The notes beneath the pieces are model-generated. The model searched no databases and was not told the DNA's origin. It worked only from the letters and a program-made list of their open reading frames with translations. The translations under genes and the position numbers were made by a program. 24,598 bases of DNA from a virus, in UHGV virus genome UHGV-0258679. One strand, written 5' to 3'. Below, piece by piece: positions 1,645 through 20,456 of this stretch. Positions within the stretch are counted from its first letter, which is position 1. The number at the start of each line of letters is the position of its first letter.

Positions 1645-1682
1645 GCCCCTATCGTTATAATACGCGGTAGGGGCGTTTTTGT
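1645..1682 (+). terminator. rho-independent terminator (GCCCCTA / loop / TAGGGGC, then GTTTTTGTTT)
   Basis: 7-bp stem and T-run between the stop at 1628 and the recombinase start; could also be part of a recombinase attachment site (dyad symmetry). Confidence 0.5.
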
Positions 1683-1693
1683 TTGGAAATGGT

Positions 1694-3373
1694 ATGAAAA
1701 CTAAACTGTATTCGTATATTCGCTTCTCGTCTATGCGTCAGAATGATGGTTCGAGTTATGAACGACAAATCAGGATGGCGAGAGAGGTTGCGGCAAAGTA
1801 TGACCTTGAACTGGTAAATGATTATCAGGATCTGGGTGTATCTGCGTTTAAGGGTGCTAACTCCAAAACAGGGGCGCTATCTCGTTTCCTTGATGCAATT
1901 GGTAGATCCGTTCCTGTTGGTAGCTGGCTATTCATTGAAAACTTGGACCGCTTATCCCGTGCCGATATTGTCAGTGCGCAGGAGTTATTCCTTTCAATCA
2001 TCCGTAGGGGGATAACCATTGTTACTGGCATGGATAACAAGATCTACTCGCTGGATACTGTTACCGCTAATCCGATGGACCTGATGTTCTCCATCCTTTT
2101 ATTCATCCGTGGTAACGAGGAAAGTCAGACTAAGCGCAATCGTACTAACTCAAGCGCACTGATTAAGATTAAAGCCCATCAAGAAAATCCCCAGAATCCG
2201 GCAGTGGCAATCGAGGAAGTTGGAAAGAATATGTGGTGGACTGATACCACTTCCGGTTATGTGCTGCCTCATCCGGTGTACTTCCCTGTTGTTCAGGAGA
2301 TTGTGGAATTACGGAAGAATGGACGTTCAACCGCCGAAATACTGGATCACCTTAACGAGACATATACACCGCCACCAGCAGTAAGCAACAAGAAGCATTC
2401 AAAATGGTCACGGGCAATGGTTGAAAGGTTGTTCCATACCCGCGCTTTGATTGGTATCAAGGAGGTCTCTGTCGATGGTGTTAACTATGAGTTAAAGGAT
2501 TATTACCCTCGTGTTATTGATGATGCTACGTTCTATCACCTTAAGAAAAATATTGGTGCTAGAGCATGGAACTTTGGAGACAAGGAAGAAGTTAAACCGA
2601 TCCCCCTGCTTAGTGGTATTGGCCTATTGAAATGTGATCATTGCGGTTGCGCTATGGTTAAAGTGAAGGGAACGAACAAACGTTCTGACCAGTATCGTTA
2701 TACATGTGATGCGACCCGTTCACGTAGACTTGATTGCGAGCATCCAAACTGGAGTTTTCGAGGTGATCAATTAGAGAAAGCTGTATTGCAATTGCTGGCT
2801 GATAAAATCTGGATTGCTGAGGATAAGGCTAATCCGGTTCCGGCTTTGAAAGTACAGGTTGATGAGATATCACGCAAGATTGATAACCTGATTGCCCTTT
2901 CTGCTATGACAGGAGCAACGAAGGAGCTAGCCGATCAGATTACTACCCTCAATAGCGAGCGTGAAACACTCTACAATCAGATCAAGATGGCAGAAGAGGA
3001 AATGTATTCTGTGGACTCTCAAGGCTGGGAGAAGCTCGCAGAATTTGATTTAGAAGATGTTTATAACGAGGAACGACTAAAGGTCCGGTTTAAGATTAAG
3101 CAAGCTCTAAAGCGGATCGGGTGTAGCAGGATTGACAGGAATAAAAACTTGTTTGTACTGGAATACATCGATGGAAAGACCCAGAGAGTTGTAATAGAAA
3201 ATTCAAGAGGAACGAGGAAAGGACAAATCTTTGTCGATTTGAAAACTATCAATGATAGGCAGATTCTGGAGAGTAACGGGCTTGTTTTGCATCCATGTTT
3301 AGACATGCTGACAGATAAGAACTGGAAACCAGAAGAGGAAATACCAGGTCCATTACAGGAATTTGGAATTTAA
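1694..3373 (+). CDS. large serine recombinase (integrase-type: resolvase catalytic domain plus recombinase/zinc-ribbon/coiled-coil C-terminal region)
   Basis: N-terminus YSYIRFSSMRQ matches the catalytic YxRVSTxxQ serine motif; LDRLSR motif; downstream Cys cluster CDHCGCAM...YRYTCD...C is zinc-ribbon-like; about 560 aa. The ORF-track start at 1679 is TTG; ATG at 1694 is the more likely start. Confidence 0.85.
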   Translation: MKTKLYSYIRFSSMRQNDGSSYERQIRMAREVAAKYDLELVNDYQDLGVSAFKGANSKTGALSRFLDAIGRSVPVGSWLFIENLDRLSRADIVSAQELFLSIIRRGITIVTGMDNKIYSLDTVTANPMDLMFSILLFIRGNEESQTKRNRTNSSALIKIKAHQENPQNPAVAIEEVGKNMWWTDTTSGYVLPHPVYFPVVQEIVELRKNGRSTAEILDHLNETYTPPPAVSNKKHSKWSRAMVERLFHTRALIGIKEVSVDGVNYELKDYYPRVIDDATFYHLKKNIGARAWNFGDKEEVKPIPLLSGIGLLKCDHCGCAMVKVKGTNKRSDQYRYTCDATRSRRLDCEHPNWSFRGDQLEKAVLQLLADKIWIAEDKANPVPALKVQVDEISRKIDNLIALSAMTGATKELADQITTLNSERETLYNQIKMAEEEMYSVDSQGWEKLAEFDLEDVYNEERLKVRFKIKQALKRIGCSRIDRNKNLFVLEYIDGKTQRVVIENSRGTRKGQIFVDLKTINDRQILESNGLVLHPCLDMLTDKNWKPEEEIPGPLQEFGI

Positions 3374-3446: not shown

Positions 3447-4445
3447 TTAAAGAGCCTCTAAAGGGCTTAAATCGAGTTCTAAGTCTTCCGGTGTTAAATC
3501 AGCTAACGGTGCATTCATCCACTGCGATAAATCTCGTTCTATGTCTTCATCACTAATGTAGTTGTTCAGATTGATTGCGTTGGTATCATCAAAATACATT
3601 GGCTTAGATGGGTTGGTGTGGATGTATTCATTGATGAATGATTTAACATCTTTCAGCTTGCTAATCGGTAGCGTTTCTGTGAATCCGCTATTCATTACCT
3701 TACGTGGGATTTTCTTGCCCTGAATATTCTTTTTAATCCCCATTTCTAAATCACCAGCTTTCCATCCAATGTTAAACAAATGTGAGCATTCAAAGGTGAT
3801 TTTCTCGCTGGTGTGCTTCTGGTGTTCTCTTACCCGTTGCATCGGATCTTTGCGAGTGGTAATTCCATATTTGAAAAACTTCTCGCCAACACGAATTAGA
3901 TAAAAGTGCATAGGGCGCTGTGCAAACTTGTTTCTGATAACCTGTTTTCTACCATTCTGAATTGATTTAAGTACACCCCTAACCAAAGGGCATGTTAACC
4001 CGCCTTGTCTGCGGTTATTATGTAAATCACCTTTCTTGTGAATCTTTCCGTGGCACTTACAACGAAGAATTAGTTTAGTGTCAACACCCTGATAAGGTTC
4101 AGCCAGACCTAACACATCCCACCCTATCGGCTTGTAGAACTTGCGAGCGTTTTCTAAGTGTTCTTCTTCGGTAAATCTAAACTTCTTCTTAGGCGGTGAT
4201 ACTCTATCTTTGCCAGTAAACTGACCAGTTAGAACATGACTAATACATGGCGTTTTAACCTTTCCGTTAACTTCTATGCAAACTTTGGTGTTCTGGAATG
4301 GTTTCTTTACAGGAAGCACAAAACCACTGTATAACCATCCATGCACTTGACAAACTTTAATGATTCTGGTTTCATATTCGACCGGAGGGGTCGCACGTTT
4401 GCTTTTTGCGGTAAATTCGATATCCTTTGCTAAAGTAGTATTCAT
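3447..4445 (-). CDS. Zn-finger plus GIY-YIG-like (T5orf172-like) nuclease-domain protein, 332 aa; candidate homing endonuclease or DNA-binding regulator
   Basis: N-terminal half has Cys/His pairs (CQVH, C...C..H, CKCHGKIH); C-terminal half has HFYLIRVGEKFFKYGITTRKDPMQRVREHQ, resembling the GIY...YIG...R...E core; acidic C-terminal tail. Assigned from motif resemblance only. Confidence 0.45.
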   Translation of the reverse strand: MNTTLAKDIEFTAKSKRATPPVEYETRIIKVCQVHGWLYSGFVLPVKKPFQNTKVCIEVNGKVKTPCISHVLTGQFTGKDRVSPPKKKFRFTEEEHLENARKFYKPIGWDVLGLAEPYQGVDTKLILRCKCHGKIHKKGDLHNNRRQGGLTCPLVRGVLKSIQNGRKQVIRNKFAQRPMHFYLIRVGEKFFKYGITTRKDPMQRVREHQKHTSEKITFECSHLFNIGWKAGDLEMGIKKNIQGKKIPRKVMNSGFTETLPISKLKDVKSFINEYIHTNPSKPMYFDDTNAINLNNYISDEDIERDLSQWMNAPLADLTPEDLELDLSPLEAL

Positions 4446-4491: not shown

Positions 4492-4893
4492 TTAATTATT
4501 GTAGTTTTGGAAACCAGTAAGATCGCAAAATGAATCAGTGTCATGTGCTGGGGAACGATGTTCTGCTTCGTCAGAGAAAATGCTTGCTACCGGAGATTCC
4601 ACTTTAATTTCCGGTGCTTCTTCAACATCTGACTTAACTTCTTCGATCACTGGTTCAACTGCTGGAGATTCTTCTTTTGTTTCTTCAATGACGATCTCAG
4701 GTTCTTTCATTGCTTCAACCAGAGACGGATCAACTTCGTCGAATACCACTTTATCATCTGCGGTATATTTGTCTATAATGAAAAAATGGTCAGAAATATA
4801 GCTAACGTCGCCAGCATATTCTAACAAAAAAGCGCCCACCAGAGGCGCTTTTGTTTTATCCATTCCACCGTGATTTTTTTGATCTGGAATCAA
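4492..4893 (-). CDS. acidic hypothetical protein (Glu/Asp/Pro-rich C-terminal half); true start uncertain
   Basis: ORF from the track; its first 10 codons overlap the peptidase gene and a terminator hairpin (4830-4858) lies inside its 5' end, so the real product may start later (for example at MKEPEIV). Confidence 0.3.
   Translation of the reverse strand: MIPDQKNHGGMDKTKAPLVGAFLLEYAGDVSYISDHFFIIDKYTADDKVVFDEVDPSLVEAMKEPEIVIEETKEESPAVEPVIEEVKSDVEEAPEIKVESPVASIFSDEAEHRSPAHDTDSFCDLTGFQNYNN
4830..4858 (-). terminator. rho-independent terminator on the minus strand (AGCGCC / loop / GGCGCT, then TTTTTT)
   Basis: GC stem plus a 6-T run immediately after the M15 peptidase stop codon. Confidence 0.6.
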
Positions 4894-5209
4894 TATGCGT
4901 AAAGGTTTTATATTTTCCTAAGCCGTATTGAGTAGGATATTTCCCATCAAGATAAGCATGAACAATATCAGGCGAGACACCCTTGATAACAATGTCAGCC
5001 GCACGGCCTCGAACGTGATAGCTATTGGCTGCCCCGCCTACATTCTTGTTATGAGTCGGGCAACGGTTGCCACTGTTAATAATCACTGGTTTACCGAAGT
5101 GCTCTCGTACATCCTCAAGAATCACCAGTAATTCAGCGTCGATTGTATCATAATCACATTTTCCGCATTTACATTTAAATTCCTTGCGAGAAAAATGCTT
5201 ACTTAACAT
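4856..5209 (-). CDS. peptidase M15 family (M15A, YcbK/DUF882-like) zinc peptidase; candidate endolysin
   Basis: Motifs SGNRCPTHNKNVGGAANSYHVRGRAADI and FTHIDSR match the conserved M15 zinc-ligand signature; RBS AGGGGGT; small size (117 aa) typical of phage M15 lysins. Confidence 0.75.
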   Translation of the reverse strand: MLSKHFSRKEFKCKCGKCDYDTIDAELLVILEDVREHFGKPVIINSGNRCPTHNKNVGGAANSYHVRGRAADIVIKGVSPDIVHAYLDGKYPTQYGLGKYKTFTHIDSRSKKSRWNG

Positions 5210-5604: not shown

Positions 5605-6288
5605 TTAAACGTATTTCATGCGCGATTTAATGTGCTTATTGATGTTTTCAAGCATCATTGCTTCGTTGCTTTCCCACGATCCTAGCGTCGAATAACGAGT
5701 AGAAATTTTATCCGATTTAACGGCAACAATTCGCTTGCTCTGTTTCTGTATGCGTTTCTCTAAGCGACGTTTTGCCACCGCCGATCCATTCCTAGCGCGT
5801 TTGGTTCGGGATTTCTTAGGCTTGTACTTCTTCATGATAAAAGTCCCTTCCTTGTTCTCTACCTTGATGAAGTTGCCGTTTTCGAGGTTACGCATCATCT
5901 TACCGCCTTTGATGGCCTTAATGTTCCCGTGGGCGTCTAAGACCTTGCCGTTAGCGATTGGAACTAGCTTATTGATTTTGCCACCATCGAAATAGTGTTT
6001 CAGATAGTCATCCTGACTGCCGATCTTCTTGTCCTTATCCCTTGCGCCCTTGATGAAGATTTGGTGTCTCGTCCCTGATCGGTTCTTGTAGTTGGTATTA
6101 CCTACCGCTTGCTGAGTCCAGCGAGTAGGTCTATCAACATTCTTGTTAATCTTCTTCTGGAGTGCTCTGGAAGCAAAGATCGCCCCTTCCCCTAGTGCCC
6201 TTTCGAATGTATTGGTTGCCTTTTCAGACCATTGCCTCAACGCTTTCTTAGTCCTTAGAGCGTTTCGTTTATTGGTACTGGTTGCCAT
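5605..6288 (-). CDS. highly basic (Lys/Arg-rich) hypothetical protein, 227 aa
   Basis: RBS AGGGGGC; strongly basic composition throughout; no motif recognised. Confidence 0.5.
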   Translation of the reverse strand: MATSTNKRNALRTKKALRQWSEKATNTFERALGEGAIFASRALQKKINKNVDRPTRWTQQAVGNTNYKNRSGTRHQIFIKGARDKDKKIGSQDDYLKHYFDGGKINKLVPIANGKVLDAHGNIKAIKGGKMMRNLENGNFIKVENKEGTFIMKKYKPKKSRTKRARNGSAVAKRRLEKRIQKQSKRIVAVKSDKISTRYSTLGSWESNEAMMLENINKHIKSRMKYV

Positions 6289-6298
6289 GTTAGCCCCC

Positions 6299-6460
6299 TA
6301 ATAACGAAAAGACCCCCGCCAGTGTCCTTAGCAATTGTTCATCCACGGTCATAGCCGGGAGTTCAAGCCCAAAGGACGTTAGCAGAGGTCTAATAGCTAC
6401 GTTATAAGTGAGGGCGACAATCAAGAGATAACCAAAATATTTCTTAAGTTTATTCTTCAT
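6299..6460 (-). CDS. small membrane protein, 53 aa (MKNKLKKYFGYLLIVALTYNVAI...)
   Basis: Hand-translated, not in the ORF track; RBS AAGGGG 7 nt upstream; one clear hydrophobic helix; no Cys, so not a lipoprotein. Confidence 0.4.
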
Positions 6461-6478
6461 ATATTCACCCCTTTATTA

Positions 6479-6757
6479 TTATTTTTGTTTGAGTATGTCG
6501 AGAACTTGGTCAAATTTGGCGTCCATCGCAACCACTTTCTTCTCTATACCGTGTAGTGTTTGTTCCATTTGGTAAACACGTTCAGCAATCTGAGTATGGT
6601 TATTCTGCATCGTCTCAAACTTCTGGTTTAACAATGCGTCGCTGGATTCCAATTTCGACAATCTATTTTCTGTGGCTAATTGATTTCGGTGAAGTCTCCA
6701 AAGCCCACCACAAATTAAGGCGATAACACCGATACCGCCATATATAATTTCAGTCAT
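6479..6757 (-). CDS. signal-anchored coiled-coil membrane protein, about 92 aa (i-spanin-like or superinfection-exclusion-like architecture)
   Basis: Start moved to the internal ATG (MTEIIYGG...) preceded by GGGGGCGTA; N-terminal TM segment IIYGGIGVIALICGGLW then a predicted coiled coil. Confidence 0.45.
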   Translation of the reverse strand: MTEIIYGGIGVIALICGGLWRLHRNQLATENRLSKLESSDALLNQKFETMQNNHTQIAERVYQMEQTLHGIEKKVVAMDAKFDQVLDILKQK

Positions 6758-6799
6758 TACGCCCCCGATATTTTTATAATTTAATGGCAAAATTATTTA

Positions 6800-6842
6800 G
6801 ATAAAAATAATCCCGCCTAACTCAAAAGAATTAAGCGGGATT
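6800..6842 (-). terminator. rho-independent terminator after the tail tip gene (8-bp stem AATCCCGC/GCGGGATT, T-rich tail)
   Basis: Inverted repeat seen directly in the sequence, followed on the minus strand by ATTTTTAT. Confidence 0.5.
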
Positions 6843-6860
6843 AATTATAAAAATTAAATT

Positions 6861-9800
6861 TTAAGAAACAGAAATACCAGTAGCGGCTTTCTTAGTTACC
6901 ATTACCGTTAGATCGCTGATATATGCATTTGGGTTATAGTCGTTAACGCCCTTACAGTAAACTTCAAAAGTCATTGTTACTGCCCCGTGTCCGGCTGGCA
7001 TGTCAATAACTCCACTGTACATACAGCCAGAAGTTGCAGTGCGATCATATAGAACACCACCATTTTTCTTAACGATTAGTCGGCAAGTATCCCAAAGATC
7101 GCCACTACTGTTGCCACGACGTTCAGACCCGTTATGATGAATCGCTGGAATCACTATTTGGCGATCGAATGGATGATCATCTTCGACCCTTACAGTGATT
7201 GCACCATCAGGCCAGTTTGGTTGGCGATGTGGGAAACTCCTACCAACCACTTTCACGAAGTCACCACGCACCTGATTAGCATCAAGCATACCCAAAATGC
7301 GGCAACTTGAATTAATCGTTACGTTGTTCATTTCGCCGGAATCAGCCACCAAATGACCACGAATATTAGCGTGTCTAAAATGACAAGTGCCATCTTTGCC
7401 AATATACCATCCATCGTTACCATTCCAGTTATAAGACTGGATATAGTTACCGATTTTAGCATTATCGATAGAGCCATCAATAATATGTCCCGTTCCGATC
7501 TGTGCGTGTTGGATGTGAGCGCCGTTAATCTGGGCTGTGCCGATCTTAGCCGTGGTAATAGCCGCATCACTAATCTGGGCTGTGCCAATTGCAGCATTAC
7601 GAATCATCGCATTATCGAGATAAACTTTGTTATCTTCGATGCCAAACGGACAAACTTCTGATCCGTCTTGTGGAGCTACCGCGATTTTATCAGCCGTAAA
7701 GATGATTCTCGTCGGTTCTGCCGGATCATTGGTTGCGCTCATATGAATACCGGCCACGCGACCATCTGCATTAACCGCCAGATTATATTTGCTGTTAATG
7801 GTTCCCTTCAAAGCATCGATTTTTACATCTGCTTCCTGATTCACACCAGCAATCTTGCCATCCATTTCTACCCGAACTTGATCAATCTTACTTGCGCTTG
7901 CTGCCTCACTGGTAGCAATTGCTTGTTTCAGGGTAGTAGCAGATGCGCTAACTTCTTTGGTGATATCGCCTTTCAGTTCAGCTTTAACCTGATCAATCTT
8001 AGTTGCGCTGGCTTGCTCACTGGTAGCAATCAGACTCTTGAGAGTATCGGCTGAGGCTTGGACCGTCTGCCCTGTCTCGGTAGTAATCTGTTTATGCATT
8101 GCATCAATCTTAGCATCGGCATTAGCGCCAGCTTGAGCAATAGCATCCGCGATGGTTTCATCTAAGCGATCTTGTAAACCAATCAGGTCTTCCAGTGCTT
8201 CTTTGTCCTGATCGTCCCAGCTAATGGTAGATTTCATTTGCATGAAATACGGTTCAGACCAAACAGCATCATCCATACCGAAAATATCATAGTGAGCACC
8301 ACGGATATAATAATCACCGTCAGCCAAATCAAAGGAAGTATGACTAACGCTATTGGTAGTCACTGCCCTTGCATCGGAGAAAGTATTATCGGTTGCATAC
8401 TGGATGATTGACCCTGCATAGTCATGTTCTACGTCATCCGCCCAGCTAACAAACGCAGTATTAAAGCCACCACGCGCACTAAAACCTTTCATCGGCTTAT
8501 GTTGTGGGTTGATAGCCACTAAACGCGCTGGGGCGCTCTCTGAGTTGTTATAGCCCTTAACGGATACTTCTACCGTCAATTCACGGGAAAGGCCGTTAAA
8601 CTGGTTCATATCAAGCGTATAAGTCCATGATTCAGGATCGCGGGTACGGTACTGAATAGACTTACCAGCCTTGTTAGTTACCTTGATAATGTATGCTTCA
8701 AACAGGTCACTAAACTTGTTAGCTTCACCGTTGATCATCACATCTAATTGTTGCTGGTTATCCCATTCGATAATCAGATCGTTGCCTTCGAAAGTACCAG
8801 GTGAACTACCCTGATTTTTGATGCGGATCGCTGGCGTAGGCAGTTCATAGGTAACTTCTGGATTCTGGTTAACCAATTCCACCCATTCGGAACGAGCAAT
8901 AATACCGAAAGCACAAACGCGGTAATCGTAGGAACGATCTTTAGCCAGTGCATTGATATTGAAAATTTGCTGTGAAGTCTGTCCCAGCTTAATCCAGTTA
9001 GGTGATCCACTCACACGGTAATCAATCTGGAAACCGTAGCGGTTGAAATCTTCCGGTGCATCCCATGTCAAAGTTACGTTTTTACCGTGGATTGTCTCAC
9101 CAGTTGCCTTAATTCTGAAATTAGTCGGTTTCTGTACTGTCATTGAATCCGGTAAACCAGTAGGTCTATTGTCTGGATTCGCCGCATAGTTCAGGTCAGT
9201 ATAAACCTGAGAATTATATTCTGTGGCGGTGATAGTCATCATCCCAGCAATACCAGAATCAATAGAGCGATCAATTGCAGTAATACGCCAAAGTGAATTA
9301 TTCAGTTTTAATTCATCATAGGTTACGCTAATAACATCCCAAACTTCGGCAGTGAATGCGTCAGTAGTCATAAAGCTGATAACCTGAGTGATACGAGATT
9401 TATTTCGTTCTACACTCGCTAGTTTATCAATCTGGGCTTTAGACTTAACAAAACGATATTCAATATCTTTAGCGATAATTCGACCATCTTGACGAATAGT
9501 AGCATCGTTTTCAGCATCAGCCGGATAACGCAGCATTTGCTCTGAATAGTCGATTGATGGTTCTTGATACATCGCGTTAATGGTATTGAAATAACCGTTA
9601 GTGCCACCTGTTTTCAGTGATACTTTTCCCATCATGATATTGTCTTCATTGAAGGTATGCTTAACAATATCAGGAGCATCCAGTTTCAGGGTAATTCTTC
9701 CAAAGGATTCGAACATTACCCCGCCGAAAGTCTGCATAAGACTGGTCAAGTTCTCTTTAAAGCTGGCGTTCGGATCACATGCACCGTTGGAATGTAGGTC

Positions 9801-10610
9801 CATCTGGCGTACTTGTTTACGCACTTTCAGGAATGAATCAACGTTAATGTTTTCAATTGGTACGGATAAGCCATATTTTTCATTTGTTAGGTAGTGGAAA
9901 ATCTGATCCACGCCGTTAGTGCTAGCCTCAATAGCATTGGTTTCGAGGTTACGGATTTTTAAGCCCATAACATCGACTGCCACTTGGCTATTTGGTTGAA
10001 GGATATCAACACCAGCAGCCAAAGATTTATCGTCACGACGTAACACAATACACATGGTCGCAATGCCGTTACCCTGATACCGATCATCCCAATCTGCGCC
10101 CAAATGATGTTTAGCCAGATCCAATGCAGTGTTAGGATTTTTACCAGTGCGAAACTCGACTTCTAACACTTTGCGGTATTCGTCTTTAATGTTTCCTTTA
10201 TCGAGAATACCATCACGAATTGTCATATTCTGACTAATGAGAACATTTTTATTATCGATGTGTAGTGCTTTAAAATGATCAATCTCACCTTCGGAAATAG
10301 CAAAAATTTGTACCAGTTTGTTGTTTTCACGTTGTGAAATTGCTTTGTAAACGCAGATTGCACCCGTGCGGGTAGTACCGAAAAGAACGGGTAATACTGT
10401 CTTAGGATCGTTTGATGTTCCTAGTGTCACCGCATTATCTGGGCTTTGTACTTTCGGTGTTTTTGGTGCGCCTACAGTGGAAGCGATCAAGGTCATTGCA
10501 CCAGCAGCCATACCGATAGCGACTGCGGTCATAACAGAAAATGTTGCAGCAGCAGCCATCCCAGCAGACGCACCAGCAATAACCGCGCCTACTAATATTT
10601 CAAATCCCAT
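6861..10610 (-). CDS. tail tip / central fibre protein, 1249 aa: lambda gpI-like C-terminal segment fused to a gpJ-like host-specificity protein
   Basis: N-terminus (Gly/Ala-rich hydrophobic stretch then APKTPKV...VLPVLFG) resembles the C-terminal part of lambda gpI; FN3-like segment in the middle; C-terminal ...DDHPFDRQIV...DMPAG...VMVTKKAATGISVS aligns with the receptor-binding C-terminus of lambda J as I recall it. Confidence 0.8.
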   Translation of the reverse strand: MGFEILVGAVIAGASAGMAAAATFSVMTAVAIGMAAGAMTLIASTVGAPKTPKVQSPDNAVTLGTSNDPKTVLPVLFGTTRTGAICVYKAISQRENNKLVQIFAISEGEIDHFKALHIDNKNVLISQNMTIRDGILDKGNIKDEYRKVLEVEFRTGKNPNTALDLAKHHLGADWDDRYQGNGIATMCIVLRRDDKSLAAGVDILQPNSQVAVDVMGLKIRNLETNAIEASTNGVDQIFHYLTNEKYGLSVPIENINVDSFLKVRKQVRQMDLHSNGACDPNASFKENLTSLMQTFGGVMFESFGRITLKLDAPDIVKHTFNEDNIMMGKVSLKTGGTNGYFNTINAMYQEPSIDYSEQMLRYPADAENDATIRQDGRIIAKDIEYRFVKSKAQIDKLASVERNKSRITQVISFMTTDAFTAEVWDVISVTYDELKLNNSLWRITAIDRSIDSGIAGMMTITATEYNSQVYTDLNYAANPDNRPTGLPDSMTVQKPTNFRIKATGETIHGKNVTLTWDAPEDFNRYGFQIDYRVSGSPNWIKLGQTSQQIFNINALAKDRSYDYRVCAFGIIARSEWVELVNQNPEVTYELPTPAIRIKNQGSSPGTFEGNDLIIEWDNQQQLDVMINGEANKFSDLFEAYIIKVTNKAGKSIQYRTRDPESWTYTLDMNQFNGLSRELTVEVSVKGYNNSESAPARLVAINPQHKPMKGFSARGGFNTAFVSWADDVEHDYAGSIIQYATDNTFSDARAVTTNSVSHTSFDLADGDYYIRGAHYDIFGMDDAVWSEPYFMQMKSTISWDDQDKEALEDLIGLQDRLDETIADAIAQAGANADAKIDAMHKQITTETGQTVQASADTLKSLIATSEQASATKIDQVKAELKGDITKEVSASATTLKQAIATSEAASASKIDQVRVEMDGKIAGVNQEADVKIDALKGTINSKYNLAVNADGRVAGIHMSATNDPAEPTRIIFTADKIAVAPQDGSEVCPFGIEDNKVYLDNAMIRNAAIGTAQISDAAITTAKIGTAQINGAHIQHAQIGTGHIIDGSIDNAKIGNYIQSYNWNGNDGWYIGKDGTCHFRHANIRGHLVADSGEMNNVTINSSCRILGMLDANQVRGDFVKVVGRSFPHRQPNWPDGAITVRVEDDHPFDRQIVIPAIHHNGSERRGNSSGDLWDTCRLIVKKNGGVLYDRTATSGCMYSGVIDMPAGHGAVTMTFEVYCKGVNDYNPNAYISDLTVMVTKKAATGISVS

Positions 10611-11029
10611 TATTCACCCCCGAATCTATAAACTTGTTCATAGTCAATGTCTGAAACAGGAATGGTCATCCAGATACCATCTTCTTCAACGAGGCCATAA
10701 CCGGAATAATGAGGAACTACGGAATAATATTTGCGGTTTCCTAATTTGTGGGCTGTGACCAGTAAGTCGCCGTCCTGTAAATCATCAGTGACTAATTTGA
10801 AATGTTTCTTAATTGGTTGAAGGATATTTGAATACCCGCTTAATTCTTTGCAGATTTTCAAGCCTTCTTCTTTAGTTGAATATTTTTTATAAAGAGAATT
10901 ATATAGGTCAGTACCAGCGAGAATATCGATGATCTTACATGCAATTAGATTGCAATCATTCTCGCCTTGAACGAACTCCTGACCTATTAAAGAATTGATG
11001 TAATCGGTGATAAGCCTAGTTTTTAGCAT
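10610..11029 (-). CDS. minor tail protein, NlpC/P60-like (lambda gpK C-terminal-domain-like)
   Basis: Start chosen at MLKTRL, preceded by GGAGG; GENDCNLIACK resembles the NlpC/P60 catalytic-Cys region; stop overlaps the start of the J-like gene. Confidence 0.45.
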   Translation of the reverse strand: MLKTRLITDYINSLIGQEFVQGENDCNLIACKIIDILAGTDLYNSLYKKYSTKEEGLKICKELSGYSNILQPIKKHFKLVTDDLQDGDLLVTAHKLGNRKYYSVVPHYSGYGLVEEDGIWMTIPVSDIDYEQVYRFGGE

Positions 11030-11075
11030 GTTGAATACCTCCATGCTGTTATTTACTAGGCTTAAGGAGAAGGGA

Positions 11076-11729
11076 TTATTTCTTCGATGAATGCCACTTG
11101 CTTTCGCTATTCCACTTCCCGGCACGGGAGAAGAATAGATCGTTCTCGTTTCCAACATAGGATCGGTGGATACCATCGGAGGCATGACTTCGAGCGTTTT
11201 TATCTAGAACTTCCCAGATACTATTAAGCTGAAATTCTGATTCGTTTTTACACTCATCATCTTCATGTTCGATGTTAATCCCGATGGAATCGACTACCCC
11301 ACGGAAAACAGGGTAAGTGGTTTCAACCTTGCCCGTGTTAGGGTTCAGGAACACCATTTCGATTTTCACATCTGATTTATCGAATTGCTTGTTTCGAATC
11401 AGGGTAATGTATTCCTCGCGAACGTTAGAAACGGTTACGTTAATCCCGTTGTTGTTGATCTCCTTCTCTTCGGTATTCGATGAGATTTGAAGAAAGTCAC
11501 CCGTTGCGAGATATGTAAATCCATTATAGTCCAAATCGAAATACCCATCTGTAAGCCGTAGAACGTCCCCTGACGCGGTAATCACTTCGATAATGTGAAA
11601 CATCGATCCAGTGGAAAAAAGCTGCGGTAGCGTCAATCTAGACACATTCTGACCTGTCTGGTCGTTGTATACCTCGATGAAGTCCAGATTAGTGCATAGT
11701 TTGCTGAATGATTCCTGAATAGTTGCCAT
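11076..11729 (-). CDS. minor tail protein (gpL-like by position), 217 aa
   Basis: Synteny between the tape measure and the K/J-like genes; start overlaps the upstream stop; no motif recognised with confidence. Confidence 0.4.
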   Translation of the reverse strand: MATIQESFSKLCTNLDFIEVYNDQTGQNVSRLTLPQLFSTGSMFHIIEVITASGDVLRLTDGYFDLDYNGFTYLATGDFLQISSNTEEKEINNNGINVTVSNVREEYITLIRNKQFDKSDVKIEMVFLNPNTGKVETTYPVFRGVVDSIGINIEHEDDECKNESEFQLNSIWEVLDKNARSHASDGIHRSYVGNENDLFFSRAGKWNSESKWHSSKK

Positions 11730-12289
11730 TATACATTCTCCACTAATTCAAATTTCATCTTGCCGATCTGGGCGATCTTCCAATCGATATTTTCAGTTTT
11801 GAGAACAAATTCGCCTTCTACGTTCTGATACTTGATCACCTCACCAGCCAGGACGTTTTGACGCAAGTTAGGGAAGAGTTTCATTTCACCACCTGATTTC
11901 ACGTCTTCGGTGATCGTGTAGATTTTCTTGTGGTTCTCAAACTGGATGATAGTTCCCGCTTTCAGTGTTCCGGTGAAGTTGGATAGTCTTACCTTACGCC
12001 CACCGCGAGCAGTACCAGCAGCAGCCGTAACCATCTGGCGTACATCACCTGTATATTTTGAAAAGTAAGACAGTGGCACACTAAAAGGACGACCAAAAAG
12101 GTGACGTGCTACAAATTCTTTTACTTCGTTAATATCCTGAGCCATGAAATTAGCTGTAAATTCTGCTTCATAAAAATGAATACCAGTAAAGCGACGCTGG
12201 AACTTACCAGAAATAGATTGCGCCTTGAAGAAAGGCTGTTTTGATTTAAGAGTAAAATCTGTGATTTTAATATTCTTGGATTTGAACAT
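11729..12289 (-). CDS. minor tail / distal tail protein (gpM-like by position), 186 aa
   Basis: Lies immediately downstream of the tape measure gene in the tail module. Confidence 0.4.
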   Translation of the reverse strand: MFKSKNIKITDFTLKSKQPFFKAQSISGKFQRRFTGIHFYEAEFTANFMAQDINEVKEFVARHLFGRPFSVPLSYFSKYTGDVRQMVTAAAGTARGGRKVRLSNFTGTLKAGTIIQFENHKKIYTITEDVKSGGEMKLFPNLRQNVLAGEVIKYQNVEGEFVLKTENIDWKIAQIGKMKFELVENV

Positions 12290-12339
12290 AGAAAAGCCCC
12301 CATAGTTTTATGATTATTTATGACTATGGGGGCTTTTAA

Positions 12340-14682
12340 TTACATCTTACGGCGCTGTGCGTCTTCTACCGCCTGAGCAACTAACTTAGCGTGACGTTTG
12401 ATAGCATCCATGACCATCTTGTCTGAGCTATTAACGTTGCCGTTAATGTTCAAAGGCGCATTAACTTCAATCGGCTGAGAGTTACCACCGCCTGATTTTT
12501 GAGCAGCAAGGAAGTCTTTCAAATCGCCGTTAGTACGCTGATCAACTACTCGTTCACCCTTATCAAGCAACCATGTACCCTCACGCGGGATGTTATCGAT
12601 ACCATCATGAGCCATACCGCTAACATTAGTAGACTTGATGTTTGCAATGTTCCCCATGTTCTGAGAAACAGCCAATGCAGCAGCAGCGATCTTTTGTCCT
12701 GTGGTGACGTTGGTCGGATCGTTCCATGCATCGGTAGCAGCCGTCCACATGTTCACCGTCGCTTGTCCAATGGAGAATGCCTTATGAGCATTGAAAGCCA
12801 TCTGCATAGCCTTTGTGTTTTCTTGCCCGAAGAGAGTCATTGCAGCAGCAAAACCGCCATACATATCATCGGCTATTGACTGGCGAGCATCAGCATATTT
12901 CTTCTCAATTGCAGCCATTCGTTTTTGATGGTTTTCATTGAGTTTTTCTAATGCTTCCATCCGTTTAGCCGGATCGGTGATCCCATCAATCTTGAGTTTA
13001 TCGGTTTTATAATCTTGTTCCGCTTCCGATTTCTCTTTATCGATTGCATTAAATTTAGCAAACGGGTTATTTGAGTCTTGATAATCAAATCCACTGGTTA
13101 ATTGATTGGATTTAAAACCATCCATTCCCTGTAAATGACTATCAATCTGAGAATAGTTTTGCTCGGTATCATTCACACGACGCATATATTCTTCGTAGGA
13201 GATAGCTTTACCATCAAGTAACCGTTTATGGCTTTCTAACTCGTTGTCCCTGATTTGTTGCAAAACTGTTAAGGCATTCAAAGCATCAACCGGATCAGCA
13301 CCCAGCATCATTTTATAGATGTTTTCTGCGTTCTGGTCTAACAGTTGCTGACGTTTAGCGGCTGCGTCTTGCTGTGAGATTAAGCCCAGATCTAAAGCAG
13401 TGTCCAAATCTTTCAAGCTGGCTTCTAACTGCTTGTTTTGAGAAGCAATAGACGCGGCTGTCTGACCGTGCAATCTAACATCAAGAGCATTCAGCTTTTT
13501 AATTGCATCTTCACGCTGTTTCTGTGCTTTTTCTGCGGCCTTCCTTGCTTCTTCTGCCGCTTTTTCTGCTTCTTCTTGTTCTTTTTTTGTTGGTCCAGTG
13601 ACGCCTCCACCTTGACCCGTTGGGGTAAATCCGGTATCCGATTTATTTCCAGTGATAGTAATTACCGGATCGCCGTTTTTATCACGGGTAACTCCGTCTT
13701 TATCCACCCAACGATCAGGATAATTTGGTTTATTGTTGAAGCTGGCTTGTCCACCTGCTAGACCAGTAGAACTATAACCATGCTTGTTAATAAAACCACC
13801 GTTAGCCATAGCCATATTCTGGCGAGCTTTTTCAAACCTTTCATTAAAAGTCTTTAATGCGTTAAATAAAGCGGTCTTTTCCCAATCTTTATCAAACCAG
13901 TTGTATAACTTGTTCATCCCTTCAACAACTGGATTTAGCGCATTTGCAGCCATACCCTTTAAGTTATCGGTAAGGGTATCCATATTTTTAGAGAATTTAT
14001 TATATTCTTCGGCTGTATCATTGGTGATTTTAACAGTTTGCTGATTAATGGCGTTTACAGCTTCCTGATAAGATCCGTATTTCTGCAATTCATCAGCCAT
14101 ATGACTTGAATCACTGGCTAACGATTCCATCATAAACTTAACATCAGCGATAGACGCACCAGCCTTGCGCATATCATAGAAGACCTTGATCGCCGCTTTC
14201 ATCCCGCCTTGTGGATCGTTCATAAACTCGGCATAATCTTTAATCTTCAAACCTACACTTTCTAGGTCATCTTCAATACCGCCACCATTACGCCACGCAT
14301 CAGCCAGTTTATCTAAGGTGTCTTTGTTAATATCACCAAATTTCTCAACGGTTAAGCCAGTACCGGAGAATTGCTTCTCTAATTTCTGGAGTGTTTCGAC
14401 GGTTAAACCAGTTGCTTTTGAAACTTCGCTGTATTCCTTTACATAATCACCGATGGCATTTGCAGCAGAGACAGCACCAGCAGCCAGACCAACAAAACCA
14501 CCAGCAGCCAAAGCAAGCGATCCACCAGTTCCGCGAAGGGTTCCACTTAAACTAGATAAACCACCAGACAAATCAAGATTCATTGCCCTTTCTGAAAGGT
14601 TATCAAGCATGTCAATCGCTTGGTTGGTACTTCTCCTTAGACCGTCATTATTCCCTTCTATTGTTACTATATGTCTTGTCAT
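12340..14682 (-). CDS. tail tape measure protein, 780 aa
   Basis: Position after the chaperone pair; Gly/Ala-rich hydrophobic segment (LALAAGGFVGLAAGAVSAANAIG), long helical/coiled-coil regions and an EEAEKAAEEARKAAEKAQKQRE stretch typical of tape measure proteins. Confidence 0.8.
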   Translation of the reverse strand: MTRHIVTIEGNNDGLRRSTNQAIDMLDNLSERAMNLDLSGGLSSLSGTLRGTGGSLALAAGGFVGLAAGAVSAANAIGDYVKEYSEVSKATGLTVETLQKLEKQFSGTGLTVEKFGDINKDTLDKLADAWRNGGGIEDDLESVGLKIKDYAEFMNDPQGGMKAAIKVFYDMRKAGASIADVKFMMESLASDSSHMADELQKYGSYQEAVNAINQQTVKITNDTAEEYNKFSKNMDTLTDNLKGMAANALNPVVEGMNKLYNWFDKDWEKTALFNALKTFNERFEKARQNMAMANGGFINKHGYSSTGLAGGQASFNNKPNYPDRWVDKDGVTRDKNGDPVITITGNKSDTGFTPTGQGGGVTGPTKKEQEEAEKAAEEARKAAEKAQKQREDAIKKLNALDVRLHGQTAASIASQNKQLEASLKDLDTALDLGLISQQDAAAKRQQLLDQNAENIYKMMLGADPVDALNALTVLQQIRDNELESHKRLLDGKAISYEEYMRRVNDTEQNYSQIDSHLQGMDGFKSNQLTSGFDYQDSNNPFAKFNAIDKEKSEAEQDYKTDKLKIDGITDPAKRMEALEKLNENHQKRMAAIEKKYADARQSIADDMYGGFAAAMTLFGQENTKAMQMAFNAHKAFSIGQATVNMWTAATDAWNDPTNVTTGQKIAAAALAVSQNMGNIANIKSTNVSGMAHDGIDNIPREGTWLLDKGERVVDQRTNGDLKDFLAAQKSGGGNSQPIEVNAPLNINGNVNSSDKMVMDAIKRHAKLVAQAVEDAQRRKM

Positions 14683-15455: not shown

Positions 15456-15926
15456 TTAGACTTTCTGGAAAACAGCTTGTTTAACCGGAGCACCATCTAC
15501 TACAAAGGTGAAAGAACGACCTACTACAGCATCTTCACCGCCCGTCATGGTAGTTTTAGACAGGAAGCCGTTATAAGCGATGTGCACACCAGATTTTTTC
15601 GTAGCGTCGATGTAGTAAGCAATTTTAAGCTGTACGCGCTTACCGTCTTCGGTTGCTTTAATCAGTTTTTCGTGTACTTCGTTACCCGGCATGTAGTTGA
15701 TCGAAAGTTCGATATCCGGTACAGACATACGACCAACCAGCTTACGGTTATAAGCACCAGAGAAGTTAGGAACATCGATCGTAGAACGTTCTACACCAGT
15801 TTCAGGGAAAGCCGCACATTCTGGAATTTCCAGATAGCTTTCACTGTCAAGATCGGTGTTAGTTACTTCTTCATGCAGAAACAGACCAACGAGGCCACCA
15901 GAAAAAATATCAAATTTAGTAGTCAT
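15456..15926 (-). CDS. major tail (tube) protein, lambda gpV N-domain-like, 156 aa
   Basis: Position immediately upstream of the G/T chaperones; RBS AAGGAAAAG; segment ...INYMPGNEVHEKLIKATEDGKRVQLKIAYYIDAT... resembles the lambda V N-domain as recalled; strong terminator downstream. Confidence 0.6.
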   Translation of the reverse strand: MTTKFDIFSGGLVGLFLHEEVTNTDLDSESYLEIPECAAFPETGVERSTIDVPNFSGAYNRKLVGRMSVPDIELSINYMPGNEVHEKLIKATEDGKRVQLKIAYYIDATKKSGVHIAYNGFLSKTTMTGGEDAVVGRSFTFVVDGAPVKQAVFQKV

Positions 15927-15980
15927 TATTCTTTTCCTTCTATTTTAAACAATAGGGTACATACCCGTAATTCTATTTAT

Positions 15981-16283
15981 TTAGCGGTTGCTCAAGCGTC
16001 TATAACGAAGATGAGCGATCCCCCTATTTGTGCTAACTGTAATTACTGCTCCTTGCGGTGCAATACAAGAATGGATCTGTCCCCAATCATGACCCTTATG
16101 GCTTCCAGAAACACAAAAACCATGAATAAACAATTCAGAGTCACCGCCGCCACCACCGGAAGAATGAGCACAGAATGAAATAGTCCCGAAAGCGTCGGCT
16201 GTCCAACCGTTAGGAATATCAAACCATCCTTGATTTGCTTTACCCGCCCTATTCCCCAAAGCGCCATCTACCCAAAATGCCAT
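15981..16283 (-). CDS. glycine-rich small protein, paralogue 3 of a tandem triplet (100 aa)
   Basis: Shares M-x-x-W...(W/Y)FDIPNGW...G-rich...V(S/T) with the two upstream ORFs; its ATG overlaps the upstream stop by 1 nt (TAATG). Confidence 0.55.
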   Translation of the reverse strand: MAFWVDGALGNRAGKANQGWFDIPNGWTADAFGTISFCAHSSGGGGGDSELFIHGFCVSGSHKGHDWGQIHSCIAPQGAVITVSTNRGIAHLRYRRLSNR

Positions 16284-16588
16284 TAGTGCATTCTCCTGAA
16301 TTTGAAATAATGCAAACTACCTTTACCCAATGTAAAGCTAACGGTAGCACCAGCGCCAACTAAAGAACTAGCGCCCCAACTCCCAGCATCACCAGCATGA
16401 TGGCCTGATTCAATCAATCCATTTACAGCCAATTCAGAATCAAGATCACCAGCACCGTTAATGGCTTCCATATGAGCAAAAACAATTCCGCATGAATCAG
16501 TAACCCAGCCGTTGGGGATATCAAAATATCCACCATTAGCCCAAATACTAATAGCGTTTGACATTCTTTGATTTATCCATCCAGCCAT
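16283..16588 (-). CDS. glycine-rich small protein, paralogue 2 of a tandem triplet (101 aa)
   Basis: Contains YFDIPNGW and ends ...YFKFRRMH; start lies 2 nt after the upstream stop. Confidence 0.55.
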   Translation of the reverse strand: MAGWINQRMSNAISIWANGGYFDIPNGWVTDSCGIVFAHMEAINGAGDLDSELAVNGLIESGHHAGDAGSWGASSLVGAGATVSFTLGKGSLHYFKFRRMH

Positions 16589-16590
16589 AA

Positions 16591-16887
16591 TTAAAACTCC
16601 ATGAATTTAAAATATTCAACACCACCTTCACCCCCTAAACCAAAGGAGACGGTGCAGCCAGCAGGAACAAACGAATTTATAGTAGATCCCCAATTGGTCC
16701 CACCACGACGACGAGCAACGGTCAAACCATCTACGTTAATATGTGCATCAGACCACCCACCACCAGCATTATGACGCATTACAGCGACACCAGCACGAGC
16801 AGTACCATAGCCGTTAGGAATATCAAATACATGCCATTTTAAAGCATCGATTTTAGTATTAATTTCACTACTTACCCAATATCCCAT
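16591..16887 (-). CDS. glycine-rich small protein, paralogue 1 of a tandem triplet (98 aa)
   Basis: Contains VFDIPNGY and ends ...YFKFMEF; RBS AAGGA upstream; follows the tail fibre gene. Confidence 0.55.
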   Translation of the reverse strand: MGYWVSSEINTKIDALKWHVFDIPNGYGTARAGVAVMRHNAGGGWSDAHINVDGLTVARRRGGTNWGSTINSFVPAGCTVSFGLGGEGGVEYFKFMEF

Positions 16888-16925
16888 ATAAGAATCCTTA
16901 GCGGAGATTTCTCCCCGCTTTCCAA

Positions 16926-19900: not shown

Positions 19901-20456
19901 TAATCAAATCAACTTTGTCATTGATTGCTTTGTGATTGCTTACGATGGTTGCATCGGTACGGGATTTAATATCATCAACTTTTTTATTGATGCGGGTGTC
20001 CAGTTCCTGAGTTGCTACAGCAGCCGCATTTTTATTAGCGTTGATGGTATCCGACAATTCAGCTTTAACACCAGCAAGATCGGAAGCAGCTTTATTTTTA
20101 TTGGCCTCGATTGTCGCGTCGGTTTCGCGTTTAATTACATCAACTTTATTGTTAATTTCTGCGTGATTTGCTGAGATGGTTGCATCAGTAGTTTGTTTAA
20201 TTTCATCTACTTTAGCGTGAATATTGCGGTCATTTACTGCAATTGTGCTATCTAGTTCTTGTTTGTTAGCATCAACTTTAGATTCTAGTGCCGCGTGAGT
20301 TTCAGGAGAAACAGAGATTTGAACTACTTCATGATCTCGGTCTTTGGTAAAAATAACATGGTCTTTAAGGTTGATTGCTACCTCACCGACCTGTAATTGT
20401 TCCGGCGTTGGCTTTTTGCCAGCTACATTAGTTCGCTTAAATTGGATTGATTGCAT
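16926..20456 (-). CDS. long tail fibre, 1176 aa, with N-terminal repeat shaft and C-terminal intramolecular chaperone (peptidase S74-like) domain
   Basis: About seven tandem 22-aa repeats of the form KVDxIKxxTDATIxAN; C-terminus ...SDRRLKINVEDY...GIIAQDLQEVLPEAV... matches the endosialidase/T5 L-shaped-fibre chaperone signature; RBS GAGGTGA. Confidence 0.8.
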   Translation of the reverse strand: MQSIQFKRTNVAGKKPTPEQLQVGEVAINLKDHVIFTKDRDHEVVQISVSPETHAALESKVDANKQELDSTIAVNDRNIHAKVDEIKQTTDATISANHAEINNKVDVIKRETDATIEANKNKAASDLAGVKAELSDTINANKNAAAVATQELDTRINKKVDDIKSRTDATIVSNHKAINDKVDLIKAETDRTIAANHAYAENQLTDTYNNLTGVIAANKQEAADNVAALTRDVEAKNTAIHSKVDNNKSYTDSELARLESRIDAADGSSDGKYIKKHVNTYTDGYLLSKTANPFDDPSALNLDYFGAFRMNDLAGHIAMILHVPHPSGVNHARGFEFTYGSNPHATVRTYGYDELGHLAYSHRMYHEGDKPTPAEIGAYSKAEIDRLFQKTLNFGIEGGWFKLGTLTMPQQHGRTAKIRLVGGNGYNVGQNGQANIIELVIRCGNNSPKGVVFNAYYTIWHYEQHFCAIPTDGDNYDLYAYYGAHTGFVLAEYQVSSGGVSLNLLDTPEYLGGEKPVADEIFDALNISSFNNFSNRGTLNFAGNHQGQYDIEHLNEQQTNSKKMLRRFRSSAPATIWHETVDDQNYRLATGYDDVNQQLLLSAATGLHIRRLTIDGGLGSGSNAGIDIRRGPNEASHFNFMDYRTGQDVRNGWFGFGDLTTKDFIWWNDNGQNSINLIENGELHITGGKGQKIVMNSEVALSENARLAVKGGNYGLIFRNDGSSFHILTTDLKDSFGGWNSRRPFSYDFAEGGLDLGGTATARCLHLGIDGSTRIEDNMVFRSGSRQSMDYIELIHWGNSNTGRNNVLSMRDSKGFLAEFERVGGTNGVKTRFFGETFTDGTLYLNQMNNSSERFSINNWGNSEVGRAAVMEVGDSKGYHFYTERRTDNTVLFDVSGALTVHGPNGITVKNSTGARHIWFRDDSDTEKAVIWATDEGILHIRNNHGGQFTHHFQGAMIKLEGRVPYAADQGLIRGEVSGGAYVAWRDRPAGLLVDCQQSVDSAHAIWKAVDWGRNYIAAMDVHCPGDSNNTAAAVLHVQGADYQFHASGEFHATGNGNFNDVYIRSDRRLKINVEDYEENAVDKVNKLKVKTYDKVKSLNDREVIGHEIGIIAQDLQEVLPEAVKTAKIGGFDNPEEILTISNSAVNALLIKAVQEMSEENKLLRERLAAIEAKLG

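Follow-up and report, generated by a model that had tools for sequence, protein, structure and literature searches.

A prophage tail-tip protein with a gpI-C-like N terminus, a gpJ-like hub, and a lambda J-type receptor-binding end

The tail-tip gene and its N-terminal module

We analyzed a 24,598-nt stretch of DNA, the virus genome UHGV-0258679 (the window, in whose numbering all coordinates are given), and focused on the gene located at positions 6861 to 10610 on the minus strand. The gene is a 1,249-codon open reading frame (ORF) that begins with ATG and encodes a tail-tip or central tail fiber protein, which comprises a baseplate hub and a fiber, as well as a receptor-binding domain (RBD). 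The ORF list and the translation established that the reading frame is uninterrupted and real. A Shine-Dalgarno-like GGGGGTG is found just 5′ of the ATG, and the start codon shares one base with the stop codon of the upstream gene (TAATG), an overlap that is the usual mark of translational coupling in tail genes.

The window is a prophage, of siphovirus type, non-lambdoid, and inserted in ycdX, since a nearly identical stretch is chromosomal in Escherichia coli and, in strain ES2, lies in ycdX together with phage genes. Positions 6000 to 12400 of the window are 96 to 97% identical to chromosomal DNA in 57 of 5,426 complete E. coli genomes. In ES2, the element is located within a truncated ycdX, beside a large serine recombinase, with the terminase, portal, and capsid genes further along.

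As had been proposed from the letters of the sequence alone (the original prediction), the N terminus of the tail-tip protein resembles the C-terminal portion of lambda gpI. Residues 1 to 47 (nt 10470 to 10610; all features of the protein are on the minus strand) are Gly/Ala rich and hydrophobic, with a 19-residue Kyte-Doolittle mean of 1.4 to 1.8. Hydropathy and the profile alignment described below equate this stretch with helices H1 and H2 of gpI and predict that it inserts into membranes. Residues 48 to 100 (nt 10311 to 10469) contain the plug-like APKTPKVQSPDN and the beta-strands VLPVLFGTTRTGAICVYKA and correspond to gpI residues 156 to 215 by BLASTP, profile, and hhalign comparisons. 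In composition-corrected BLASTP, residues 48 to 107 aligned with residues 156 to 223 of lambda gpI at 35% identity (E = 2e-6). A tblastn search with gpI against the whole window matched a single place, the N terminus of the tail-tip protein (gpI residues 121 to 223, E = 3e-4).

Because the Pfam model of gpI covers only the ubiquitin-like domain of that protein, we made a profile (A1) from an alignment of 21 homologous N termini, and we found that the pattern P-V-x-Y/F-G-x-x-R-x-G is nearly invariant across these diverse homologues. Searched against 177,635 PDB sequences, A1 ranked lambda gpI first (8iyk_I; E = 1.8e-8, gpI residues 114 to 221) and T5 pb3 second (residues 261 to 314, E = 2.5e-8), the latter in one stretch running from PVVYG through AEGEID. 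The comparison of A1 with gpI by hhalign gave a probability of 96%. The last 30 positions of A1 also aligned with residues 22 to 56 of lambda J (QLLSVIDAISEGPIEG), weakly but in register (hhalign E = 3e-4, probability of 39%). At the level of sequence comparison, the homology of residues 1 to 100 to gpI residues 114 to 221, which form the region termed TAPI-C (hydrophobic helices, plug, and beta-strands), is thus confirmed.

We then looked for the remaining part of gpI. Residues 1 to 120 of gpI had no tblastn match anywhere in the window, from which the ubiquitin-like beta-grasp domain is absent. PF06805 (Lambda_tail_I) did not match residues 1 to 120 or 1 to 500 of the tail-tip protein at an E value of 10, while lambda gpI itself scored 100 bits over its residues 14 to 97, and a general Pfam search of residues 1 to 120 at an E value of 10 gave chance matches alone. 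In agreement with the original prediction, Pfam (PF06805), tblastn, and the gene layout revealed no stand-alone gpI gene between the K and J positions in the window. By these comparisons, the tail-tip protein corresponds to no more of gpI than its C-terminal half.

Among 1.84 billion cluster representatives, 27 matched residues 1 to 130 of the tail-tip protein. Nearly all of them matched from about residue 5 of their own sequence, in proteins of up to 2,300 aa, and the matches to PHROG families likewise fell at the start of tail fiber families. As judged from the alignments, the tail-tip protein runs unbroken across the lambda I/J gene boundary, like T5 pb3, because the A1 profile spans the T5 pb3 stretch and aligns with residues 22 to 56 of J. 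What the original prediction had singled out as a gpI-gpJ fusion is a common unsplit arrangement and not a special I-J fusion, since many long tail-tip proteins begin with this segment and T5 pb3 carries it as one contiguous stretch.

The 47-residue N-terminal stretch was also considered as a signal peptide. This candidate was dropped: the stretch is too long, homologues conserve two helices' worth of it, and it can be aligned with the helices of gpI.

Hub, fiber, and receptor-binding end

We modeled residues 1 to 800 with AlphaFold2 (AF2), using an alignment of 33 family members. The mean predicted local distance difference test score (pLDDT) was 78.9, and values were mostly between 80 and 90 beyond residue 64; the strands at residues 79 to 91 were modeled at 84 to 88. 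A Foldseek search of this model against the PDB retrieved, in order, DT57C/T5 pb3 (E = 1e-34), the JBD30 baseplate, lambda gpJ (E = 4e-24; entries 8k35_A and 8iyk_F, about 1e-24), the T1 tip, and phage Chi, with the megatron of the Rhodobacter capsulatus gene transfer agent (RcGTA) lower down (6tba_8A; E = 7e-14). The model assigns residues 101 to 480 (nt 9171 to 10310) to hub domains of the HDII-HDIV type; this part opens with KLVQIFAISEGEID, the counterpart of residues 22 to 36 of lambda J. It assigns residues ∼490 to 790 (nt 8241 to 9143) to three tandem FNIII-like beta-sandwich domains, with AF2 strands at residues 496 to 582, 595 to 700, and 711 to 792. This region matched three-domain FNIII fragments in Foldseek (E of about 1e-13 to 1e-15), and its Pfam fn3 matches were weak. 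In AF2 and Foldseek, these generic FNIII-like domains stand where lambda J has FNIII-A_GpJ, Ig_J, and Ig_J_second, three lambda-specific families that had no Pfam match here and that score 134 to 142 bits each in lambda J. The part of the protein that follows the gpI-like segment is therefore J-like, as originally predicted, at the level of the predicted fold, and at the level of sequence in its distal 400 aa.

Residues 791 to 930 (nt 7821 to 8240), identified by local alignment and phmmer, form a predicted helical shaft region that contains a direct duplication of 34 aa. The two copies, residues 849 to 882 (nt 7965 to 8066) and 886 to 919 (nt 7854 to 7955), aligned locally with a score of 103, compared with a mean of 27 (standard deviation of 5, maximum of 52) in 2,000 shuffles, so that the internal duplicated segments noticed in the original prediction are genuine. 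BLASTP self-comparison gave no off-diagonal matches, and local alignment with shuffles was used in its stead. By phmmer, residues 842 to 1017 matched the central fibers of T1 and F2-pyocin. The next part, residues 931 to 1067 (nt 7410 to 7820), is a fiber region of the Phage_Tail_Tip (DUF1983) type with 11 pentad repeats. PF09327 (Phage_Tail_Tip) scored 67 bits over residues 931 to 1029 (cutoff, 22), and the periodicity count showed an Ile strictly every 5 residues, repeated 11 times, in residues 1003 to 1053 (nt 7437 to 7607). This 5-residue periodicity is what had been described as AxIxxAxI-type repeats. Tandem Repeats Finder found nothing in the DNA of the gene, and the repeats exist at the protein level only.

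According to PDB and Pfam matches, residues 1068 to 1249 (nt 6864 to 7409) comprise a distal prism and an immunoglobulin (Ig)-like RBD of the lambda J type. The Pfam family Ig_GpJ_C (PF12421) matched residues 1132 to 1249 (nt 6864 to 7217) with 118.7 bits (cutoff, 26.2). Residues 1068 to 1249 align with residues 947 to 1131 of lambda J at 42% identity (BLASTP E = 2e-34), and lambda J (8iyk_J) was found by phmmer in the PDB with E = 8.7e-34 and 119.6 bits. The C terminus thus belongs to the receptor-binding family of lambda J, as foreseen, over an aligned length of ∼180 aa instead of the 150 aa first proposed. Pairwise alignment with lambda gpI and gpJ, which had been suggested as a check, was significant at both ends of the protein. 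The best PDB match of the domain was A8 gpJ 713 (9wca/9wcb; phmmer E = 4e-44, 153.7 bits). Over the last ∼180 residues, identity was 46% to A8 and 43% to lambda J, and A8 and lambda J shared 54% identity. Among natural proteins, the domain is closest to the J proteins of lambdoid prophages of enterohemorrhagic E. coli (EHEC) of the VT1-Sakai type, with 52 to 54% identity. For residues 790 to 1249, matches in sequence to solved structures (E = 1e-34 to 1e-44) settle the fold.

The original prediction also named a LamB-type receptor on the basis of motifs in this domain. The contact of lambda J with LamB is made by four bottom loops, L1 to L4 (PMC11101478). A8 is a lambda J chimera with the C terminus of a natural E. 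coli prophage J, and it delivers DNA through OmpC in cells deleted of lamB (PMC11338833). Wild-type phage 21 uses LamB, a single J substitution adds OmpC, and further ones add OmpF (PMC11336670). In PDB entry 9wcb, A8 gpJ is deposited together with OmpC; this structural link is drawn from the contents of the entry, and a literature search gave no paper on that structure. Our alignment showed that DDHPFDRQ, DMPAG, and KKxxxGIS are conserved in A8 as well as in lambda J and that the segments between them vary. We read the motifs as framework residues that do not predict the receptor, because the same conserved positions occur in the OmpC-binding A8, and the variable stretches of the RBD are taken to be the receptor-contacting loops. 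The motifs being shared, the domain being slightly nearer to A8 than to lambda J, and a single mutation sufficing to add OmpC use in phage 21, the prediction of LamB in particular is not supported. The characterized receptors of the J-type RBD family are all trimeric porins: lambda uses LamB, A8 and 1A2 use OmpC, and phage 21 and its mutants use LamB, OmpC, or OmpF. Since this is true of every characterized receptor of the family, the receptor of the present protein is most likely a trimeric porin of the OmpC, OmpF, or LamB type; which of them is used is not decidable from sequence.

We compared the E. coli alleles of the protein (P0003, P0078, P0086, and P0101), whose backbones are 98 to 100% identical. 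P0003, the commonest variant, is 100% identical over residues 1 to 1067 and 59% identical over residues 1132 to 1249, and the other alleles are 63 to 79% identical over the latter region. Salmonella relatives have 74 to 86% identity over residues 1 to 790 and an unrelated C terminus. The receptor-binding end is, by these comparisons, an exchangeable cassette, because the RBD diverges on nearly identical backbones. Such an exchange of cassettes is normal for RBDs.

A proposed mechanism and its alternatives

Lambda gpI is a virion component of which residues 101/135 to 223 form a trimer inside the tip cone, where the hydrophobic helices H1 and H2 (predicted transmembrane), the plug (residues 159 to 175), and beta-strands added to the gpJ sheets retain the C terminus of the tape measure protein; once LamB is bound, the hub opens and the plug becomes loose, and H1 and H2 have been proposed to move into the outer membrane (PMC11101478, PMC10721106, PMC12617516). 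The plug of T5 pb3 also lies inside the cone and is proposed to meet the outer membrane, and it was proposed earlier that gpL and gpI plus gpJ's N-terminal portion are jointly the counterpart of the single pb3 (PMC10721106). The RcGTA megatron begins with an "iris/penetration" domain, which shuts the channel and is proposed to form a pore in the outer membrane (PMC7296036).

We propose that all tip functions are carried by one chain of an intact, trimeric tail-tip protein encoded by a siphovirus-type E. coli prophage, an explanation that we consider likely, mechanism included. From its N to its C terminus, this chain would consist of a gpI-C-type module, the hub domains HDII to HDIV, three FNIII domains, a helical shaft followed by a repeat-built fiber, and the Ig-like RBD. 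The gene is conserved in 57 complete E. coli genomes, and relatives are found across Salmonella, Enterobacter, Klebsiella, Serratia, Proteus, and Providencia. The individual steps of the mechanism follow, by analogy, the structures of lambda, T5, and RcGTA, from which we infer the plug and membrane-insertion role, the formation of a trimer, and the class of receptor. In the virion, three N-terminal modules would sit inside the tip cone with their strands zipped onto the hub, the HDI part of which would come from a separate 217-aa protein, and the modules would plug the channel below the C terminus of the tape measure protein. The distal domain would bind a trimeric outer membrane porin, and the signal would pass up the fiber. 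The fiber and the FNIII domains would swing away and the hub would open, and the freed hydrophobic N-terminal helices would then insert into the outer membrane, preceding the tape measure protein and the DNA.

Several observations weigh against this explanation. Residues 1 to 64 have pLDDT values below 50 in the AF2 monomer model, which leaves the structure of this part without support from the model, and a plug cannot be shown by a model of a monomer. Residues 100 to 1000 had no significant BLASTP similarity to lambda J, and Pfam Phage-tail_3 scored 19.8 to 21.6 bits, below its cutoff of 23. The hub assignment accordingly derives from the fold of the model together with the PHROG matches, because the similarity in sequence is not significant. 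The A1 profile found no sequence match to the N terminus of the RcGTA megatron. Finally, the porin class of the receptor is extrapolated from relatives that are at most 54% identical in the binding domain.

The comparison with known tips shows both likenesses and differences. T5/DT57C pb3 is the best structural match for residues 1 to 800, and PVVYG...AEGEID is contiguous in both proteins. However, pb3 carries HDI on its own chain (the match to pb3 begins at its residue 261), whereas HDI is here a separate 217-aa protein, and pb3 ends after the FNIII domains, without a fiber or RBD. The plug is an internal insertion in pb3 and is at the N terminus here. RcGTA, with its hub protein g13 of the DUF2163 type, peptidase g14, and megatron g15, resembles the prophage in having a separate hub attachment protein and in its central hub fold. 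The megatron has channel-closing N-terminal helices that are proposed to insert into the outer membrane (PMC7296036), and hydropathy predicts hydrophobic N-terminal helices in the prophage protein, whose N terminus has, by the A1 profile, no sequence match to that of the megatron. Unlike the prophage protein, which has both, the megatron has no lambda-type fiber or RBD and binds side fibers. The A8 gpJ chimera and the J proteins of EHEC lambdoid prophages share the Ig_GpJ_C RBD family with the tail-tip protein (44 to 46% and 52 to 54% identity, respectively) but differ in the variable stretches of the RBD, and the remaining part of the protein is unrelated in sequence to lambdoid J. Fusions of I and J (TAPI-TAPJ) in prophages were noted in 2006 by Iyer, Burroughs, and Aravind (PMC1779556). 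As in the present protein, gpI-derived sequence and J are on one polypeptide in these fusions, but they involve TAPI, whose hallmark is the ubiquitin-like domain, while only TAPI-C is found here.

Part of the evidence might be read to mean that genes I and J are fused in some special way and that the distal domain binds LamB as in lambda, given that the homologies to gpI and J are real, that lambda J binds LamB through this domain (PMC11101478), and that wild-type phage 21 also uses LamB (PMC11336670). We regard this reading as unlikely: only the C-terminal half of gpI is present, without the ubiquitin-like domain; the arrangement is common to many unrelated long tail-tip proteins and to T5 pb3; the domain is slightly nearer to the OmpC-binding A8 than to lambda J (E = 4e-44 versus 9e-34, 46% versus 43% identity); the quoted motifs are conserved in A8 too; and the variable stretches differ even among alleles of the same prophage lineage. 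OmpC could instead be the receptor, as it is for A8 gpJ, the nearest structurally characterized relative, which gives the best match in the PDB, shares entry 9wcb with OmpC, and delivers DNA through OmpC in lamB-deleted cells (PMC11338833). This assignment is tentative, and we lean against it, as the identity to A8 (44 to 46%) is about equal to that to lambda J, single substitutions can change specificity in the family (PMC11336670), and the closest natural relatives are the EHEC lambdoid prophage J proteins, at 52 to 54% identity.

Two further alternatives concern the protein and the ORF themselves. The resemblance to gpI could be an artifact of composition between two Gly/Ala-rich hydrophobic stretches that have no common origin, and the low complexity of residues 1 to 47, the lack of a Pfam family in the first 120 residues, and the low AF2 confidence all speak for it. 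This is nevertheless very improbable, since the composition-corrected BLASTP alignment is significant in the nonhydrophobic residues 48 to 107, P-V-x-Y/F-G-x-x-R-x-G is nearly invariant in the 21 homologues, and A1 ranks gpI first and T5 pb3 second among the 177,635 PDB sequences. It can also be asked whether the long ORF results from two genes merged by a frameshift or a sequencing error or is a decayed prophage gene, a question raised only because lambda has two genes here. We found nothing in favor of such an origin and consider it extremely unlikely: more than 100 clusters, drawn from several genera, contain full-length proteins with the same start Met, GGGGGTG precedes the ATG, and the upstream gene ends at the start codon, which therefore leaves no room for another gene.

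The tail-tip gene is thus an ordinary one, already annotated and uncharacterized, whose arrangement is of a known kind, and the present findings leave current understanding unchanged. As a single chain of likely trimeric character, the protein is a clean natural example of how the lambda tip genes L, I, and J map onto the fewer and larger tip proteins of other siphophages; here, the putative gpI module for plugging and membrane insertion is nothing more than the N terminus and lacks the ubiquitin-like domain. It also places a lambda-type porin-binding domain on a non-lambdoid prophage, where it is swapped among nearly identical E. coli backbones. This is useful for the prediction of receptors and for the engineering of J chimeras, and it serves as a warning that the framework motifs of the J RBD do not predict the receptor.

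Tail module, distribution, and neighboring genes

The neighbors of the tail-tip gene all share its strand and make up a siphovirus tail module. It includes the tail tube gene (15456 to 15926, minus strand), followed by two listed ORFs of chaperone size and by a putative tape measure gene (12340 to 14682, minus strand; 780 aa). The tape measure ORF had no Pfam family match, and its assignment is suggested by position, size, and its coiled-coil and Gly-rich composition. From there to the tail-tip ORF, the genes abut or overlap, and all are assigned (Dit-like, hub-like, and DUF6950). The gene at 11729 to 12289 (minus strand) encodes the distal tail protein (Dit), as indicated by phrog_1302 ("distal tail protein," 2.6e-16) and a weak Pfam match to the pb9 B domain. 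At the gpL position (11076 to 11729, minus strand), we found the 217-aa hub attachment-domain protein, which matched PF09931 (phiJL001 gp84 N/DUF2163 type; 26.4 bits, cutoff of 26) and phrog_2048 ("tail protein") and is named "DUF2163 domain-containing protein" in RefSeq. Going by these matches, this protein would supply the HDI part of the hub. The gpK-position ORF (10610 to 11185, minus strand) encodes a DUF6950 protein (Pfam, 47 bits) with no JAB domain. The true start of this gene is likely internal, at about 11038, since the first ∼50 codons of the ORF overlap the preceding gene.

This order of Dit, hub-HDI protein, K-position protein, and tip protein parallels the M-L-K-(I)-J order of lambda, and the tip protein itself resembles lambda gpI-C plus gpJ, with the equivalent of gpI residues 114 to 221 followed by the hub, FNIII domains, helical shaft, fiber, and Ig-like RBD. 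In contrast to lambda, where gpI and gpJ are two polypeptides, there is one here, and the ubiquitin-like N-domain of lambda gpI is lacking. Lambda K contains NlpC/P60 and part of Prok-JAB (Pfam), whereas the protein at the K position has DUF6950 and no JAB. Lambda gpL has a four-Cys iron-sulfur site, whereas the L-position protein, of the DUF2163/phiJL001 type, has two Cys and no such site. FNIII-A_GpJ, Ig_J, and Ig_J_second are found in lambda J and unmatched in the prophage protein, whose hub has no significant BLASTP similarity to that of lambda J.

It was predicted in 2006 that the JAB domain of gpK processes gpI (PMC1779556). The joint lack of the ubiquitin-like and JAB domains would fit the idea that both work together, as far as a single case can indicate. 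A bolder suggestion, which we put forward as speculative and rather unlikely, is that this lineage preserves the unsplit lambda I-C/J unit, without the ubiquitin-like domain of gpI and the JAB domain of gpK, and that its RBD alleles could be a natural series of porin switches, possibly including receptors new for the J-type RBD family. If this is true, the unsplit form that lacks both domains makes the prediction that gpK JAB processes gpI testable by comparison.

Proteins 94 to 97% identical to the tail-tip protein are abundant in E. coli, where they are named "phage tail tip protein" or "DUF1983 domain-containing protein," and the syntenic gene is named "phage tail tip domain-containing protein" in RefSeq. 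One 90% cluster of relatives holds 3,211 sequences, and relatives at 35 to 73% identity were found in Providencia, Salmonella, Enterobacter, Klebsiella, Pantoea, Serratia, Proteus, and Raoultella. Among 50,697 phage records, megablast with the gene as the query gave no match. The best phage match in tblastn was to Escherichia phage DCP80, with 38.8% identity over residues 29 to 1119. DCP80 (PQ671644), with a genome of 141 kb, is assigned to Straboviridae in its record and contains a motA gene and one for endonuclease VII, yet its tip gene is of the siphovirus type, with the same gpI-C-like N terminus, so that the phage is either an unusual hybrid or mislabeled in its taxonomy. In several E. 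coli genomes, the stretch equivalent to positions 6000 to 12400 is interrupted by ∼850 bp that hold a homing-endonuclease-like gene for a "NUMOD3 domain-containing DNA-binding protein," and in one E. coli genome IS1 is also present within this stretch.

Elsewhere in the window, a serine recombinase of 564 aa is located at positions 1679 to 3373, and the window therefore begins at or near the attachment site. An ORF of 332 aa (3447 to 4445, minus strand) had no family match; ES2 has a DEAD/DEAH helicase gene at the same place. This ORF adjoins an endolysin of the Peptidase_M15 (D-Ala-D-Ala carboxypeptidase) type (4856 to 5209, minus strand), and the small membrane or coiled-coil ORFs at 6479 to 6790 may be part of a lysis cassette. 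Between the head and tail genes lies a side fiber ORF of 1,176 aa (16926 to 20456, minus strand), the 3′ part of which is 77 to 92% identical in DNA to the gp37-type long tail fiber distal subunit of T-even phages (G37-3, phiS, and KFS-EC). The small ORFs just downstream of it (15965 to 16971) likewise match G37-3, and the side fiber looks like a recent transfer of a myovirus fiber tip into a siphovirus-type prophage. The major capsid ORF (22267 to 24273, minus strand; "phage major capsid protein" in RefSeq) is unusually long, with 668 aa, perhaps because a scaffold or protease domain is fused to it.

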